A stretch of 63,567 nucleotides of DNA, filler included, from an uncultured archaeon (GTDB lineage Archaea; Nanobdellota; Nanobdellia; Woesearchaeales; CAIVOO01): the NCBI GenBank assembly GCA_903842985.1. It is 6 parts of 6 records of this genome, joined end to end, with 100 filler letters (N's around TTAATTAATTAA, not from the genome) between each part and the next. Parts side by side here need not be neighbours in the genome. Positions count along the whole stretch, not along the records: positions 1 to 29,446 come from CAIMOB010000013.1; 5 more parts are not named here. One strand, 5' to 3'. Below the pieces are notes generated by a model that was not told the origin of the DNA, did no database searches, and worked only from the letters and a program-made list of their open reading frames with translations. Below are positions 1 to 32,500 of this stretch, piece by piece. Made by a program: the position numbers and the translations under genes. Numbering within the stretch: position 1 is the first letter of the stretch; each line of letters opens with the position of its first letter.

Positions 1-726
1 CGCGCCTTCGGCGCCACTGCGAACTACCCCAAGGAAACGGCCACTGCCGTCGAGGTCGTCGCCGCCACCGAAGCCATCCCCGACGCTGCCGAGGAACAGT
101 AACCGGCCCTGAGATTGTCCTGGATTTATGCTATCAAAAGTATGCCAGTTCCCATACTGTTCTGTATCATAGACCTTTCCTGCAATATTGAGATATTTCT
201 CGAGCTTCTCTTCCCCGCCTGCGCGGGCAATTGCAAGAGGATTATGGCAAAGCTTTTTTATTGGCTGAATGCCTGACTCTGTTTTCCTGGCTTCATTGAA
301 ATCAATAACAATGACATAATTTGCAGGCAGTTTTGGCATTTTCCTGAAGTCATTGAATGAATAAACAGGAATTTTATCATTTTCAAGCACGCTTATAATG
401 TCATTGCTGCCAAGCCTTGCAGCGCCGTTGATAAGACCTTCCTTGTATGCCTGCCTGATTCTGGCGGGCGTCAAAACCTTAATGCCGTGGACTTCCAGGA
501 CAACTGGATTGCCTGCCTTTGTCTTTCCGGCAAGCTCCTCAGAATTCGCAGTAAGCCACTGCTTCCAATAAGCATCTTCCTCAGGGTTCTTTGCTCTCTC
601 TGCCACTAATTGTGGCATTGAGCATACGTACCCTTTCCTGACTTGCTCCTGCGCCTCCTTTAAAGCAGATGGCAAATCTGAATCATAAACAATGATTCTG
701 TTCTTTAATGGCTTTTGGGTTTCCAT
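1..726 (-). CDS. Putative DGR target (variable) protein, 3'-partial; runs off the window edge
   Basis: Manual translation from ATG at 726: METQKAIKENRIIVYDSDLPSALREAQ...YWKQWLTANSEE...YGNWHTFDSINPGQSQGRLLFLGSVGDGFGGGDDLDGSGRFLGVVRSGAEGA. Open for 242 codons. The C-terminus resembles DPANN DGR variable regions. Absent from the ORF track because it has no stop codon in the window. Confidence 0.8.
   Translation of the reverse strand, partial: METQKPLKNRIIVYDSDLPSALKEAQEQVRKGYVCSMPQLVAERAKNPEEDAYWKQWLTANSEELAGKTKAGNPVVLEVHGIKVLTPARIRQAYKEGLINGAARLGSNDIISVLENDKIPVYSFNDFRKMPKLPANYVIVIDFNEARKTESGIQPIKKLCHNPLAIARAGGEEKLEKYLNIAGKVYDTEQYGNWHTFDSINPGQSQGRLLFLGSVGDGFGGGDDLDGSGRFLGVVRSGAEGA
2..110 (-). 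mobile_element. DGR variable region with IMH-like tract (25-42) and GAA-loop hairpin (2-14)
   Basis: Abrupt GC-rich run of mostly NNC/NNT codons, then GGCCGTTTCCTTGGGGTA, then GCGCC-GAA-GGCGC. Confidence 0.7.
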
Positions 727-929
727 TGACGATGGTAAACAAAGGGCATATTTAAATCTTTCGGTTTGTTACTACTTATAAGTTATTGTAATAGTATAAT
801 AATATTTTCAATATTCTAACTAATTATTAACCCAAACCTCTCAAACCCCTAAATTCAAGCCTTATGGCGCCTATAAACGCATTTTAAAAACAAAAGATTT
901 ATAAAGAAAAACAGGTTCTGAACATCTAG

Positions 930-994
930 ATTTTCTCGACGAAGAAAATGCACTTTTTCGAAGAAAAAGTGCGACCAAAAAATGAAATTTTTTG
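930..994 (+). promoter_or_regulatory. Three tandem inverted repeats in the gyrA leader, downstream of a TTTATAAA box (898-905)
   Basis: ATTTTCT-cgacga-AGAAAAT; GCACTTTTTC-GAA-GAAAAAGTGC; CAAAAAAT-GAA-ATTTTTTG. Confidence 0.5.
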
Positions 995-997
995 AGT

Positions 998-3900
998 ATG
1001 GCAGAAACACCTGAGAAAAGCCCTGAAAAAATCATTCCCCGCGTTATTGAAGAGGAAATGAAGAAGTCCTACATAGATTACGCCATGTCTGTCATTGTCG
1101 GCAGGGCACTGCCTGATGTCCGCGACGGCCTGAAGCCGGTTCACAGGAGGATTTTATTCGCAATGCAGGAGCTTGGACTGCTCCATAACAAACCATTCAG
1201 GAAATGCGCAAGAATCGTTGGAGACACCCTTGGTAAATACCATCCGCACGGCGACATGGCTGTTTACGATTCCCTTGTTAGGATGGCGCAGGAATTTTCA
1301 ATGCGTTATCCGCTGGTAATGGGTCAGGGGAATTTTGGGTGCTTTACAGCTGATACAAAAGTCAAGTTAACTGATGGAAGAAATTTAAGTTTTAAAGAGT
1401 TAATAAAGGAAGCAAAGCAAGGCAAGAAGAATTACACTTATACAATCAATTCTTTAGGTTTAATTTCAATAGCAGAAATAAAGAAGCCAAGGCTTACCAA
1501 AAAAATGCGGAAATAATAAAAGTCATTCTGGACAATGATGAAGAAATCAGATGCACACCAAACCATTTATTCATGACAAGAAAGGGCATTTACAAAGAAG
1601 CACAGCATCTTAAGTCAGGGGATTCTTTGATGCCACTTTACTTTAGAATTTCAGAAAACGAGGATACAATAAACAGGGAAGGCTATTTGCTGGTGCACCA
1701 GCCCAAAAACAACTCATGGGTGCCTGCGCACCATCTCGCAGACAACTATAATTTGACAGCAAGCGTTTATGCAAAAAACAAAGGGAGGGTAAGGCATCAC
1801 ATTGATTTTAATAAACTAAACAATAGCCCAGACAACATTACAAGAATGAAGTGGGAAGAGCATTGGAAACTGCACTATGAGCATGCTTCCGAGCTTCATA
1901 AAAATAAAGATTACAAAGCAAAGATAGCTGAAGGAAGAAGAAAATTCTGGGACAATGCCTCAAACAAGGAAAAATACTCCCAGAGATTATCTTTAAGAAA
2001 TAAGGAAAACTGGAAAAAAGAAGAATATAGGAAATCAATGATTGCTAATTTAAGCAGGATTAATACGGAATATATTTTAAAACATCCAGAAAGAAGAAAG
2101 GAGCATAGCATAAGAGCAACAAAAACCTTGAAAAAACTCTGGCAAAATCCAGAATATAGGCAAAAAAAAGTAAATTCTCTGAGGGAAAAATGGAAAAATC
2201 CTGAATATCTTAAAGAGCAGTCAGAACGCATGAGACAACTGTCTTTTAGGATATGGTCAAATCCAAAACATAAAGAAGCAATATCTCAATTATTAAAAGA
2301 AAGGTGGAAAAACAAGCAGTATAAAGAAAAAATTATTAATGCTTACAAGAACAAATGGAATGCAGATGCTGAATTCAGGAATTACTTTTTGGACATACTT
2401 TCAAAAAACGGAAAAAAAGCAAACTACTCCAGATTCTTGGCGGTATGCAAACAAACAATAGAAGTTTATGGAGAGCTGAATGAAGAAAATTATGAAAAGA
2501 CAAGAGTCTCCTACAATTCCAGAAAAGGCGCAGGAATAATTAGGTATAATGAAGCGCTTAAAAAATTCTTTGGCAATGATATTGAAAGGCTGCATAAGGA
2601 ACTTGGAATAAACTTAATTAAATTAAATCACAAAGTGAAGGAAATCATTTTCTTGAATGAAAAAGAAGATGTTTATGATTTAACAATAGAGAATACACAC
2701 AACTTTGCCCTGGCAGCCGGCATTTTTGTTCATAACTCCGTTGACGGCGATTCACCTGCTGCCCAAAGGTATACAGAAGCAAAGCTAAGCAAGATTGCAG
2801 AAGAAATGCTTGCAGACATTGACAAGAACACAGTTGATTTTTCTCCGAATTTTGACGGCTCGCTGAAAGAGCCAACAGTCCTTCCTTCAAAAATCCCAAA
2901 TCTGCTGGTTAACGGCAGCTCCGGGATTGCAGTTGGGATGGCAACAAACATACCGCCGCACAACATGTCTGAGATTATTGATGCAACAGCTGCATTGATT
3001 GACAGCCCTGAGATTCCTGTCTATGATTTAATGAAACATGTCAAGGGGCCTGATTTCCCAACAGGCGCGACAATTATCGGAAAGGAAGGAATTGGGCTGG
3101 CATACACAACAGGAAGGGGGAAAGTGACTCTAAGGGCAAAATCTGAAATTATTGAGGAAAAGGGAAGGCAGAAAATAATCATTACAGAAATACCATACCA
3201 AACCAACAAGTCAGTGATGATTGAAGAGATGGCTACGCTTGTCAAGGAAGGCAAGATAACAGGAATCTCTGACATAAGGGATGAGTCGGACAAGGACGGA
3301 ATAAGGGTTGTGATTGAAATAAAAAAGGACTCCAATCCCCAGGTTGTTCTGAACCAGCTCCATGCGCACACAAAGATGGAGCACACATTCGGCATAATCA
3401 TGCTTTCTCTGGTTAACAACGAGCCAAAGGTGCTGAACCTAAAGGAAACAATCCAGCAGTTCATAATCCACAGGCAGAAAGTTGTAAGGAGAAGGACAGA
3501 ATTTGAGTTGAATAAGGCAGCAGAAAGAGCGCATATTCTTGAGGGGCTTATAATTGCATTGAAAGACATTGACAACGTTGTCAAGAAGATAAAGGCATCG
3601 AGGGATGTACAGGCTGCAACAATAATTCTGATTAAGGATTATTCTCTTACTGACATACAGGCAAAAGCAATTCTTGACATGAAACTCCAGAGGCTTGCTT
3701 CACTTGAGCAGGAAAAGATAAAAAAAGAGCATGAGGATTTGCTGAAATTAATCAAGGAGCTGAAGGAGATACTTGCTTCTGAGCAGAAAATCCTGGAGAT
3801 TATCAAAACAGAGCTTCAGGAAATGAAGGAGAAATACGGCGGCAGGAGAAAGACAGAGATTGTTGAGGGCGAGGCAGAAGAGATGTCTGCAGAGGACCTG

Positions 3901-4830
3901 ATAAAGCCAGAGGATGTTGTTGTCACAGTAACGCACGCAGGCTACATAAAGCGCATGCCTCTTGACGTCTACAAGAGCCAGGGCAGGGGCGGAAAAGGTG
4001 TTGTCGCGGCAGACACAAAGGAAGAGGATTTTGTTGAGGATATTTTCGTTGCAAACACACATTCATACATTCTGTTCTTCACAAGCAAAGGCAGGGTGCA
4101 TTGGCTGAAGGTGCACGAGCTTCCTGTTGCCTCAAGGCAGGCGAGGGGCAAGGCAATAGTCAACCTGCTGCAGCTTAAAGAAGATGAAAAGGTAAGCGCG
4201 TTCGTGCCTGTGAAGGAATTTGACAACAAGCATTTCCTGATAATGGCAACAAAGAACGGCACTGTGAAGAAAACAAATCTTGAGCTTTACTCAAATCCGA
4301 GAAAAGGCGGGATAATCGGAATCACAATTGACGAAGGCGACCAGCTGATAGAAGTTGTGCTGACTTCTGGAAGCAACCAGATAATGCTTGCGACAAAGAA
4401 AGGCATGGCAGCAAAGTTTATGGAAGAGGATGTAAGGCCTTGCGGAAGGTCTGCAATGGGTGTCAGAGGCATAAAGCTTAGGGAAGGTGATGAAGTTGTC
4501 GGCATGGTCATAGCTGAAGACGAAAAGGCATTATTAACTGTCACTGAAAACGGCTATGGAAAAAGGACAGCTATTTCTGAATACAGGCTGATTGGAAGGG
4601 GCGGAGTCGGCGTAATAAACATACAGTGCTCTGAGAGAAACGGGAATGTTGTTGCAATCAAGACAGTTACTGAAGATGATGAGATAATGCTTGTAAGCCA
4701 AAAGGGAATAATGATAAGGGTGCCTGTCAAGGAAATCTCTGTCATAAGCAGGAACACGCAGGGCGTGAGGCTGATGAAGCTCGAAGAGGGGGACAGGCTG
4801 TCTGCAGCTGCGAAAATTGCAAAAGAATGA
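998..4830 (+). CDS. gyrA: DNA gyrase subunit A, intein-containing, apparent frameshift at ~1499-1505
   Basis: [31 protein letters not shown], catalytic AAQRYTE, GyrA-box QGRGGKG and C-terminal pinwheel repeats. The two ORFs (992-1516, 1573-4830) join if one A is added to the A7 run. Confidence 0.95.
1340..2736 (+). mobile_element. Intein (~466 aa) with HNH homing endonuclease in GyrA
   Basis: Block [14 protein letters not shown] after GNFG; block [10 protein letters not shown] in the shifted frame; [18 protein letters not shown] motif; C-terminal [22 protein letters not shown] followed by Ser (SVDGD). Confidence 0.93.
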
Positions 4831-16248: not shown

Positions 16249-16402
16249 TATAAAGCGGCGAGCCCGCACAAATTTTTTATAAAAATTTGATAAAAATAAT
16301 GCGACTCCTAGTTGCTGCGCAACCGGAGTCCCATAATGGCTTCTTGGGCTTTAGAATACAGAATCAATAATAAATTACAGAATATAAAGCGGCGAGCCCG
16401 CA
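16249..16402. repeat. 20-bp perfect direct repeat TATAAAGCGGCGAGCCCGCA (16249-16268 and 16383-16402), duplicating the SRP RNA 3' end
   Basis: Identical 20-mers; the second overlaps the SRP RNA terminus. Confidence 0.85.
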
Positions 16403-28236: not shown

Positions 28237-29446
28237 TCTGATTTTAATTATAATCATTTCTTTTGCATTATTCATAAGAATTTTATCTTTGAAAAATATA
28301 TTTGTTGCGGACGAATCTTTTTTTTATTCTACCATATCTAACAAATTATTTTGGTGGCATCCTCCGGCATATTTTTTATTGCAAAAATTGTTCATTGTAC
28401 CAAATGTTTTTTGGACTGCCCGATTGGTTCCTTTGATTTTTGGCATTATAAATATTATCTTGGTTTATATTATTTCAATAAATGTATTTGACAAAAAAAC
28501 AGCAATTTTTTCGAGCCTGCTGATGGCTTTCAGTTTTTGGCCTGTTCTCGCATCTTCAATGATCGATATAAACGGCTCTTTGGTTATGTTTGAATATTTG
28601 CTGACTTTTATCATGTTCACAAATTATTTGAAGACTAACAAAAACAAGTTCTTAATTTTAACGGGTGTGCTCATTGGGATTAGTTCCATTACAAAATACA
28701 TGGATACATTAATTTTAATTGCTATTCTGGGCCTAATCCATCTTTATGAAAAGAAAAATATTAAAAAATCAGTAAAATTTGGGATAACAATCGTTTTAAT
28801 CGGTGGGATTATCTATTCATTATTCCCTTTGCTTTCATACTTGCTTGGCTACTGGCCGCATTTTATCTCAACATTAGAAAATACCTCTTTAGCAAGCAGG
28901 GGGTTCACACTGCGACCGTTTATTTATCTTATATTCTGGGCAACGCCAATGCTGGGTGGATTATTTTTGCTGTCTTTGTTAAAGTTTGAGAAGAAAAAAA
29001 TATACTTTGTAATCTGGACAGCTGCTGTGTTTTTACTATATTTTTTTATTGTTGGCGCAAGCAGGCTTCCATACGAACGTTATCTTATGACAATGATACC
29101 TGCGCTTTGTATCCTTGGTGGAAATTACCTCTCAAAATTTAATTTTAAGGCAAAGCAGACAGTCATTGGGATAGCATCATTTGTGGCATTTTGTATTATT
29201 CTTTTATATTTGAATTTAAGAACAAAAACATTTATACCTCACTCTTTATCTGCTTACTTGAGTGCTGTAAAAAACTTAAAATTTAACTTTATGTATCCAT
29301 ATGTAGGAAGCAGCGGTCCTTCGTTCTGGATATCATTTGATTCAATGATTTTGATTGTTAGCTTAAGTTGTTTATTCCTGCTTTTGTATTTGTTTTATGA
29401 CAAATATCTGAAAAATAAGAAAGTATCCTCATTATTTTTTATATTA
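28214..29446 (+). CDS. GT-C (ArnT/PMT-like) membrane glycosyltransferase, 3'-partial
   Basis: ADE, HPP, ARL, TK and ERY motifs; many TM helices; ends at a gap. Confidence 0.85.
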
Positions 29447-29547: not shown

Positions 29548-32500
29548 TATATTGATCATGGCGATTTTAACACAATTGAATCTATAACCTCATATAATGT
29601 TAATTATGGCGTGTATTTGAATTACGGCAATAATAATAGTTTAGTTGGGAATAATTTCGCACTCAGTTCATCTGATGGCGTGGAGGTTGTTACGTCTAAT
29701 GATAACACTATCACTGACAATATAATGAACAATAGCGGCACTTATGGAGTATATGTGTTGCATTCTAACGGAAATACTCTTACAGGCAACACAATAACAT
29801 CATCCAATTCAAGAGGATTATTTTTATCTGAAGGCAGCAACAACAATATTCTGAACAATAATATTACAGATAGTTATTGGGAAGGGATTTATATTGATGC
29901 TCCGTCTTCAGGCAACACATTCACAAATACATTTTCTTGCTACAATAATGAAGATGGGTCGAGTTATGATGTCAATGATTTTAATGGGGCAAACACTTTT
30001 TCAGCTACTACCTGTGATTCATCAAGTCCAGGCGGTTTATGCAATTTTAGCTGCCCTGTTCCGCCTGTATTGTGCGGAGACACAATCACAACAAATAAAA
30101 TATTAACTGGTAATCTGTCCTGCGGGGGTTTATCCTCATCAAGTTATGCATTAAGGATAGGCGCACCAGGTATAACTCTTGATTGCAACGGTTATTCTAT
30201 AAATGGATCCGGTACGGGAATCGGCGTAAAAATAATGAACTCAGTCTCAGGAGTTACAATTAAGAATTGCAATATTTCTATGTTCGGAAACGGAATACTC
30301 AGCAGCAGTGCCCAAGGCAATACCATTTTCAATAACACAATCAGCAATATCACCCAATACGCAATAGGCATTAGGCAAGCGACAAATTATACTATTGCTT
30401 ACAATGAAATAAGCAGCTCTAATGAGGGCGTGCATATTTTTGCATCTTCCAACTCCAATGTGTACAAAAATACCCTTGCCGGAAACACATATGGAGTTTC
30501 TGAAGCGCAATCAGATGGGACTATTTTAGACAATAATACCATCACAGCTAATACTGGTTCTGGAATTTATATGGATGGCAGTGCCTCTGCTTCGACGAAT
30601 GTCATCATTAAAAACAACAACATAAGCTCCAATAATAATTACGGAATTGATGTTAATGATTGTGATGGGTCACAGATTCTCAATAATATAATCAGCTTGA
30701 ACAATTACAGCGGAATTTACATATATAGTAATAAACCACATTCTGGTCATTTGATAATAAACAACACAATAGAATACAATGTTCAGCAGGATTGCAGTCT
30801 TGGCGGCTGTGGCGCAATGGCTGGAGTAGAACTTTACGGCGAAGATACATGCACCATAGAGAACAACAATGTTTCTTTCAATAATAATAATGGCGTCACT
30901 TTATACGAAACATACTCTTCAGGTCTTATCTCCAATAACATCGAGAACAACAATAATTTTGGCATATTGTTTGATTCAGGCGAAAGTAATACAATCAGCG
31001 GAAACACGCTCATAAATAACACCAATGTTGGCATAAGAGCCTACGGCAGCAGCAACATGATAACAAACAATGTTGTGCAGGGAGATGGTGTGTATAATTC
31101 AACAAGTGGGTTATATTATAGTGGGATATATTATGATTTAGGAGAAGGAAATTATTTCAGCGGAAACAAGGTTTCAGGATACGAATATGGAGCATATGTG
31201 GACTCTATCAATAGTTTCACGATCGATAATGATGAGTATTATAGCAACAATGTCAGCATTTATCTTAATAATGTGGGCAGTTCAGCTGTAATTGCAAATT
31301 CAAACATCCATGACAGCTGCGAAGGAATAACTGTTGCTGGGTTTTCAACTCCAGTAATAACCGACGACACATTCACAAACAATACCTGCGTCGGATTGCA
31401 TGCAACAGGCAGTTTAAATACAACCCTGCTGAACAGCAATTTCTATGACAATGGGTTCTGGGGAATGTTCGGAGAATCATCATCACCAATACAGTGGGTT
31501 GTCACTTCAACAGCTGTGTGCAGAAATTCAAACATTAACATTACAAATGGATTTTTGGTTCCATTTGGAGGAGTCCTTAATGCTGACAGCACCTGCTCAA
31601 TCTATATCAACGGAAGATACCTGAATACAACTGCAGGAGAGCAGGGAGCATTCATATTGCCATTGGACACAAGAATGGGCATGGGCAGTTGCGGCACTAA
31701 TTGCGATGTTTTAGGCGGTCGTAATTACAGTGTCGAAATAAAGGTTTATACAAATGAGTCAACCCAGGCGAATGTCACCATAGTTTTCGTTAATGAAAGT
31801 CCCGGATCAAATTCATTGAAGCTGCTGGGCAACTATATCAAGATAGAACATGACCCAATAAACATCAGTTTAGTAAAATTAATAATCTATTACAATGAAG
31901 CTGAGGTTAATGCTTCAGGATTAGACGAGAGCAAGTTAAGGATTGAATATTACAATACTAACACCAGCACTTGGGAGAAATACGATACTCCATGGGGAGG
32001 TGTTAATGTTAGTGACAATTATGTCTGGGCCAATTTAACCCACCTAAGCACATTTGGAATTTTCGGAAGCGCAGCATCAGGCAGCAGCCATAGCAGCGGC
32101 GGAGGATCCGGCGATGCTGTTACTGTCACCTGGCCTGACAGCGCAGACGGACTGAGGCTGAGGGCGGCAAGCAGCGGAAGCGTTGTTTATTTCAATGTAG
32201 CCAATGCCGGCTATACGCTGACAATCCCGGCTGTATCTGCAAACGGCGCGTTATTTGAAGTTGCATCATCATTTGTTACTTTGCTTCCCGGACAGAAGAT
32301 TAGCCTCGACGTGAATGGTGATGGGGCTGCAGACATATCAATAAGCGTGACATCCATATCATCTGGCTCTGCTGATGTATTTTTTGAAAGAGTCAGCGCA
32401 GCACCAGCGGCGGTTCTGCCTGGAATTTCCAATGCAACAGCGCCAAAAGAGGCAGCTAAGCCTGCAGCAGCAGCGCCTGCAAAAGAAGAGCTTAAAGCGC

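Follow-up and report, generated by a model that had tools for sequence, protein, structure and literature searches.

DGRs of this archaeal host group, AvpA targets, and the avd-less architecture A are already in print. The closest described systems are the DUSEL4 Nanoarchaeota DGRs and AvpA (PMC4372165, PMC5006420, PDB 5IOO). In the sections of these reports drawn on here, the IMH/IMH* pair TGGGGT/TGGAAT is found in DUSEL4 DGRs together with GRA-loop hairpins lying within the target gene (Paul et al., 2015; PMC4372165), and AvpA carries its VR internally, followed by a tail of 46 residues in which the hairpin lies; an RFxGV end is present as well, and no ligand is named for it (PMC5006420). 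Another related arrangement is architecture A1 (target-TR-RT) of Wu et al. (2018) (PMC5758913); in the parts of that paper used here, architecture A accounts for 75 of 372 DGRs, and Avd-independent homing is flagged as unexplained. A further reference system is the BPP-1 DGR (mtd-avd-TR-brt; bioRxiv 2023.10.23.563531), which has Avd and a 140-nt Sp. Finally, the RNA motif RT-16 (Rfam RF03019) is given no function in the main text of Weinberg et al. (2017) (PMC5737381), where it is only speculated that further RT motifs act in DGRs.

In the present study, we analyzed a stretch of 63,567 nucleotides composed of several contigs (the window), positions 1-29446 of which correspond to contig C13 of an 879-kb archaeal genome (G000) that is 92.65% complete. 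The gene at its left end is very probably the target of a complete Avd-less archaeal DGR (target, RT-16 RNA, TR, and RT). Together with the C54 contig end, this DGR likely makes up a single cassette of 2.2 kb, and its RT has likely rewritten a stretch of 85 bases at the positions of template adenines, thereby varying the face of an AvpA-type lectin fold that is predicted to bind the ligand. The locus shares with the published DUSEL4 and AvpA accounts the TGGGGT/TGGAAT pair, a GRA-loop hairpin inside the target, an AAY-rich TR, a VR located internally with some 46 residues of tail behind it, the RFxGV end, and a predicted AvpA-subclass CLec fold (~30% identity, Z 27); the target is an ordinary new member of the published AvpA group. 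It differs in several ways: G000 has a single cassette, compared with at least four in DUSEL4; the stretch from target to TR lacks an ORF the size of Avd; two versions of the VR are available, as is an empty site; and an RT-16 leader is present, of which the DUSEL4 sections drawn on here make no mention. Gene order is shared with architecture A1, and the accessory gene is likewise absent, whereas the parts of Wu et al. (2018) used here describe no structured leader RNA. The locus resembles BPP-1, as far as the preprint sections used here describe it, in a TR-to-VR transfer that is specific to adenines, in the IMH and the hairpin, in having a related RT, and in an RNA duplex (here predicted) between strands upstream and downstream of the TR. 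Unlike BPP-1, the locus has a large RNA structure 5' of the TR, only 38 nt from TR to RT start in place of the 140-nt Sp, and a hairpin with a 3-nt loop inside the ORF; the upstream strand of the duplex lies about 147 nt from the TR here and is adjacent to it in BPP-1, and Avd was not found.

Target Gene, Template Repeat, and Variable Repeat

The target gene occupies window positions 1-726 on the minus strand and encodes codons 1-242 of about 281 of an AvpA-type CLec protein, as judged from the frame, phmmer, and a predicted model. The frame from 726 to 1 was open for 242 codons with no stop before the contig edge, and the gene was probably left uncalled because no stop precedes that edge. On the C54 side, the same frame added 39 codons and then a stop (last 39 codons plus stop at G000:C54 29110 to ~28991), which gave a protein of about 281 aa. 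The 242-codon ORF described in the initial annotation is therefore open as stated but is not full length, being cut by the contig edge. Since the frame runs off the contig and continues for 39 more codons on C54, the VR is internal, about 47 codons before the C-terminus, rather than C-terminal as was first proposed. The GC-rich codons quoted in that annotation for the end of the ORF were present, with a GC content of 0.69 over window 1-110 compared with 0.44 over 111-726, and C occupied the third position in 17 of 25 codons at 207-231 versus 40 of the 206 preceding codons. The GGCCGTTTCCTTGGGGTA tract (window 42-25) and the hairpin GCGCC-GAA-GGCGC (window 14-2), which are separated by 10 nt, were both found as described, with the correction that the hairpin sits within the coding frame (G-A-E-G-A).

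A BLAST search of window 1-800 against the genome yielded two significant matches to the VR region, both on C54. The VR (window 24-108, minus strand, codons 207-234) has its TR at C54:28749-28833 on the minus strand, which is 85 nt long with 27 A and 11 AAY codons. All 58 non-A template sites were identical between TR and window VR, and 19 of the 27 A sites were changed (hypergeometric 5e-13); that is, the mismatches fell at TR adenines in 19/19 cases and at other bases in 0/58. The runner-up site for the TR in the genome reached 33/58 non-A matches, and neither an adenine-masked scan nor a self-comparison of G000 revealed a further VR or a second DGR. The template predicted by the initial annotation was thus located, with mismatches confined to its adenines, and the claim of a hypervariable DGR target was borne out by the adenine-only TR/VR mismatches, the two VR versions, and the linked RT. 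The A-to-G bias was strong in the window VR (18/19 changes) and weaker in the C54 version (8 G, 5 T, 1 C). By computation, the TR could give rise to about 5e13 different proteins, none of which would be cut short by a stop codon.

According to the VR/TR alignment, the IMH core TGGGGT lies at window 26-31 on the minus strand, and the TR has TGGAAT (IMH*) at the corresponding place. The 5-bp hairpin with a GAA loop (window 2-14, minus strand) was identified by pattern search, folding, and other cassettes. Its stability alone was not above that of shuffles (z +0.36); the combination of a GRA loop with a 5-bp stem made up only of G/C occurred at only 2 sites in the 879-kb genome, which are the two versions of this hairpin site. 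Of 18 other cassettes, 11 had a 5-bp GRA/GRNA-loop hairpin 3' of the VR. By analogy with BPP-1, the RT would copy an RNA that includes RT-16, the TR, and a short tail at the 3' end, making errors at A; the resulting cDNA would then replace the VR from the IMH onward, with the GAA hairpin aiding.

Upstream of the target gene lies an AT-rich region (window 727-800, minus strand), and the right cassette border falls near 800, given that the window again resembles the empty site of the relative G001 from about 801 onward. A motif of the TATTTAAA type near window 750, with 19 occurrences in the genome, is a candidate promoter element. A sigma-70 promoter scan was set aside as not applicable to archaea.

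Reverse Transcriptase

An intact RT gene of 336 aa was found at C54:27701-28711, downstream of the TR, with YVDD and PLGNLTSQ motifs. Its best PDB match was 8UB7 (328-aa reverse transcriptase, E 1e-48), which we take to be the BPP-1 bRT, and the best group II intron RT scored 1e-19. A group II intron or retron RT was rejected on profile scores (TIGR04416, 156 bits vs. a cut-off of 300; retron St85, 51 vs. 235). Named RT relatives at 49-68% identity were mostly records titled Woesearchaeota or Nanoarchaeota, so that the host is presumably a DPANN archaeon belonging to this group. Counting G000, 79 of the 401 genomes in the order had a close RT (E <= 1e-40). The RT query returned no match in the incomplete genomes G001, G002, G010, G015, and G060; target-like genes are present in four of these. 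Of the DGR-type RT and the Avd that had been anticipated, the RT was found 38 nt from the TR, but Avd was not found in G000.

Many related RTs (L021, L022, L023, L028, L033, L038, L040, L041, and L045) lie in open frames of about 550-580 aa, which suggests a C-terminal extension of about 220 aa. At L021, L028, and L045, the RT is followed by an ORF of 168-171 aa, the end of which we presume from its motif to be tyrosine-recombinase-like. At L021, L023, L028, and L038, the upstream gene is on the strand opposite to the RT.

Fold and Location of the Target Protein

The target matched no family in Pfam or NCBIfam. A phmmer comparison with AvpA (PDB 5IOO) gave an E-value of 2.6e-21 over residues 13-238, at about 30% identity. 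We then compared an AlphaFold2 model built from 13 sequences (pLDDT 88.7) with 5IOO and obtained an E-value of 2e-17 with TM 0.77/0.88 by Foldseek, and Z 27.1 with an rmsd of 2.3 over 207 residues by VIA-align, in which the next rows, at Z ~5, were C-type lectin domains and the DGR protein TaqVP. Among the AvpA motifs, RFxGV was exact as RFLGV, and GxxVVVYAH and HPxxxPFxG were diverged but aligned (GNPVVLEVH and NPLAIARAG). These results indicated that the predicted fold of the target is the AvpA-subclass CLec fold, in line with the C-type-lectin fold expected by the initial annotation.

The hydropathy profile of the target had a 19-residue maximum of 0.63 with no N-terminal hydrophobic core, and the same was observed in 12/12 homologues. 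By hydropathy, there was no hydrophobic signal or transmembrane stretch, which agrees with the earlier remark that no signal peptide is evident. The target may accordingly be cytoplasmic. We tentatively suggest that the target protein could be soluble and bind, inside the cell, a foreign protein that changes, whether from a virus or from the host. It is also conceivable, if somewhat unlikely, that the target is a surface protein that is exported by a non-canonical route and attaches to host cells: CLec DGR targets are usually surface binders, and the part of Handa et al. (2016) drawn on here proposes a role in symbiosis, but the hydropathy values of the target and its 12 homologues speak against export, and archaeal clade-5 DGR targets are typically without transmembrane segments (Roux et al., PMC8144416).

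An alignment of 13 targets contained no stretch conserved enough for a scan of the collection, and a metagenome scan with the single protein gave one locus among the matches listed, which was without an RT. In G002, for which no close RT was found, a same-family AvpA-like gene (L018; G002:C114:1-540, minus strand) stops at the contig edge just before the expected VR. Tandem target-like paralogues without a nearby RT were seen as two genes in L049:485-2278 and as a run of related genes of 260-310 aa with similar C-terminal tails in L017 (G060:C138).

Leader RNA and Apparent Absence of Avd

The interval between the target stop and the TR is 157 nt and holds no ORF longer than 32 aa. Directly upstream of the TR, at C54:28834-28978, we identified the Rfam RT-16 RNA (RF03019) with 70.2 bits against a cut-off of 50 over model positions 1-158. 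As in the published account of RT-16 (PMC5737381, in the parts used here), this full-length match lies near an RT gene; unlike in that account, it directly abuts a verified TR, ending one base before it. Our literature search returned no paper tying RT-16 to a DGR TR, although the supplement of Weinberg et al. (2017) or the article by Paul et al. (2017) (PMC5436926) may already link them.

We examined the 29 best other RT loci with their flanks (the frame call at L030 is unreliable). A co-oriented target-gap-TR-RT layout was observed in 18 of them, with gaps of 135-333 nt, and the remaining 11 had no such target/TR pair within the flank examined. RT-16 was above the cut-off in 20 of the 29. 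Counting this locus, none of the 19 co-oriented cassettes had an ATG-started ORF longer than 45 aa between target and TR. At the genome level, RT-16 was detected in 67 of 78 relatives with a close RT and in 0/40 genomes chosen from the RT-negative list, and 11 of the 78 had no RT-16 match. The Avd family was above the cut-off in 3 of the 78 RT-bearing genomes, and these three had no RT-16 match; one further genome had a weak Avd match together with RT-16. Because the genomes are related, these counts overstate independence. Two Pfam models for Avd (PF22296 and PF05635) were without a match in G000, which is 92.65% complete, and Avd is described as poorly conserved in the part of Wu et al. (2018) used here (PMC5758913).

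These results suggested that the usual helper protein is likely dispensable for the cassette, which probably relies on the folded leader RNA instead. Alternatively, the element might need a helper resembling Avd that is missing from the assembly or has diverged beyond recognition, with RT-16 serving only as a transcript leader or stabilizing element. This would fit the requirement of bRT for Avd (bioRxiv 2023.10.23.563531), the Avd-sized basic ORFs marked in DUSEL4 cassettes by Paul et al. (2015) (PMC4372165), both as given in the sections used here, and the incomplete genome. We consider it unlikely, in view of the 19/19 co-oriented cassettes without a suitable ORF, the 3/78 genomes with Avd above the cut-off, and the report, in the portion of Wu et al. 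(2018) used here, that avd-less DGRs also have no remote avd (PMC5758913).

Predicted Long-Range Helix around the Template Repeat

Folding of the leader, TR, and tail predicted that the first RT-16 bases pair with the TR 3' tail about 15 nt (8-25 nt) past IMH*. In a whole-region duplex test, which is cruder and noisy, 7 of 19 cassettes passed and this locus failed (p 0.30). A contiguous Watson-Crick helix test, for which narrower windows were picked after the whole-region output, beat shuffles at p<0.05 in 14 of 19 cassettes, and this locus gave 8 bp with p 0.04. The helix scored 21.9 with own partners compared with 15.8 with permuted partners (permutation p 5e-5), and the sequences differ among loci. 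Five of the 19 cassettes failed the strict test, of which three, by eye, pair with G-U. In a competing fold, the RT-16 5' arm can pair within the first RT-16 stem. A MITE-like DNA inverted repeat was also considered as the source of the long-range pairing and was disfavored; the imperfect pairs read as G-U on the sense strand, which favors RNA over a DNA inverted repeat.

The predicted RT-16:tail helix would resemble the avd:Sp 'cPRT Stop' duplex of Handa et al., which, according to the preprint sections drawn on here, was surveyed in Avd-bearing DGRs only (bioRxiv 2023.10.23.563531). We lean toward a model in which the RT-16 5' end pairs with the tail 8-25 nt past IMH* and closes the TR in a loop, and in which the leader would supply the RT-binding or priming structure that BPP-1 keeps in its downstream Sp.

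Second Variable Repeat Version and Activity

Window positions 1-168 overlap the C54 end (29111-29278), which, according to the alignment, carries a second VR version. The two differed at 13 positions, all of which lay within window 44-100 and at TR adenines (chance 3e-8 in the 85-nt VR). Window 1-43 and 101-168 were identical to the C54 end, with identity at all 155 other overlapping sites. The C54 version likewise had 14/14 of its mismatches to the TR at A. The two VR versions indicate past activity, not necessarily current activity. It might be argued that the DGR is real but now inactive and that the versions go back to old differences between strains or to the pooling of samples; only two versions were seen, in contigs of one assembly. 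We regard this as distinctly unlikely, given that the RT, TR, RT-16, IMH, and hairpin are all intact, and that identity at the 155 other overlapping sites points to recent divergence of the versions.

Probable Contig Join and Origin of the Cassette

The gene scpB precedes the RT on C54, and gyrA follows the target on C13. These two genes are adjacent on one contig in four of six family relatives, namely G001 (same genus), G003, G004, and G006, and on different contigs in G002 and G005. G001 aligns with C54 up to 27702 and again from window 801, with zero DNA between, and thus presents an empty site. In G000, the target gene is represented by only a single 5' half and a single 3' tail. The reconstructed cassette is 2208 bp, with a GC content equal to the genome mean, and inspection of its borders by eye revealed no target-site duplication, terminal repeat, or integrase. 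Most likely, the cassette is a single insert, flanked on one side by a small ORF that follows scpB and on the other by the region upstream of gyrA, a join that rests on overlap and synteny. The gene order in the four relatives makes a single locus with an assembly break at the VR likely, and the assembly most likely broke at the place where the population differs. In the contigs from public data (4 DNA runs of one study, with no RNA run listed), the VR is left uncovered on the C54 side. Pieces from three public runs start at window-equivalent 101, 108, and 90, two of which are one base past a variable site; at low depth, this is a weak hint, to which we gave no weight. Gain of the cassette in this lineage would be more parsimonious than four losses.

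It is highly improbable that the window gene is instead a remote paralogous target diversified in trans by a C54 cassette with its own copy, as the scpB-gyrA adjacency with the clean empty site in G001, the single 5' half and 3' tail, and the identity of the versions outside TR adenines all speak against it, even though the overlap is asymmetric (identical flanks of 43 bp and 68 bp), the join is seen in no bridging contig or read, and remote targets are known in DUSEL4 (PMC4372165, in the sections used here). The suggestion in the initial annotation that the RT and template lie to the left or act in trans was therefore upheld for the left side, with action in cis backed by synteny, and was not supported for trans.

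With confidence slightly short of even, we propose that the single cassette is an active DGR of minimal content that was acquired recently and belongs to a Woesearchaeota-type lineage with a wide distribution, in which RT and RNA alone would perform mutagenic homing, and in which RT-16, clamped to the TR 3' tail by a covarying helix, would take the scaffolding and priming roles of BPP-1 Avd/Sp, making it a one-protein hypermutation system. With an RT gene alone and some 270 nt of RNA, the intact cassette, for which two natural products and an empty site are known, makes Avd-independent homing directly testable and gives the orphan RT-16 motif a likely job. If true, a one-protein DGR would simplify engineered hypermutation tools. 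With the assembly likely split at the VR, neither gene callers nor DGR finders that work on single contigs would pick up the target together with the machinery; DGR activity can thus conceal itself through assembly breaks at the VR.

In G003, a different ORF of 101 aa (L011:2331-2636) fills the scpB-gyrA interval, and this spot may take up insertions repeatedly.

Other Features in the Window

The gyrA gene (window 992-4830, plus strand) carries a large insertion, which by motif presumably has intein-like ends. Its frame changes near window 1500-1515 in an A run, possibly as an assembly error. In G001, gyrA with the insertion is one frame of 1280 aa, and G003, G004, and G006 have GyrA of 804-810 aa without the insert. 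Two short repeats were also observed, in which window 16269-16368 corresponds to C12:18870-18971 (89%) and window 31244-31412 corresponds to C52:7187-7355 (88%).
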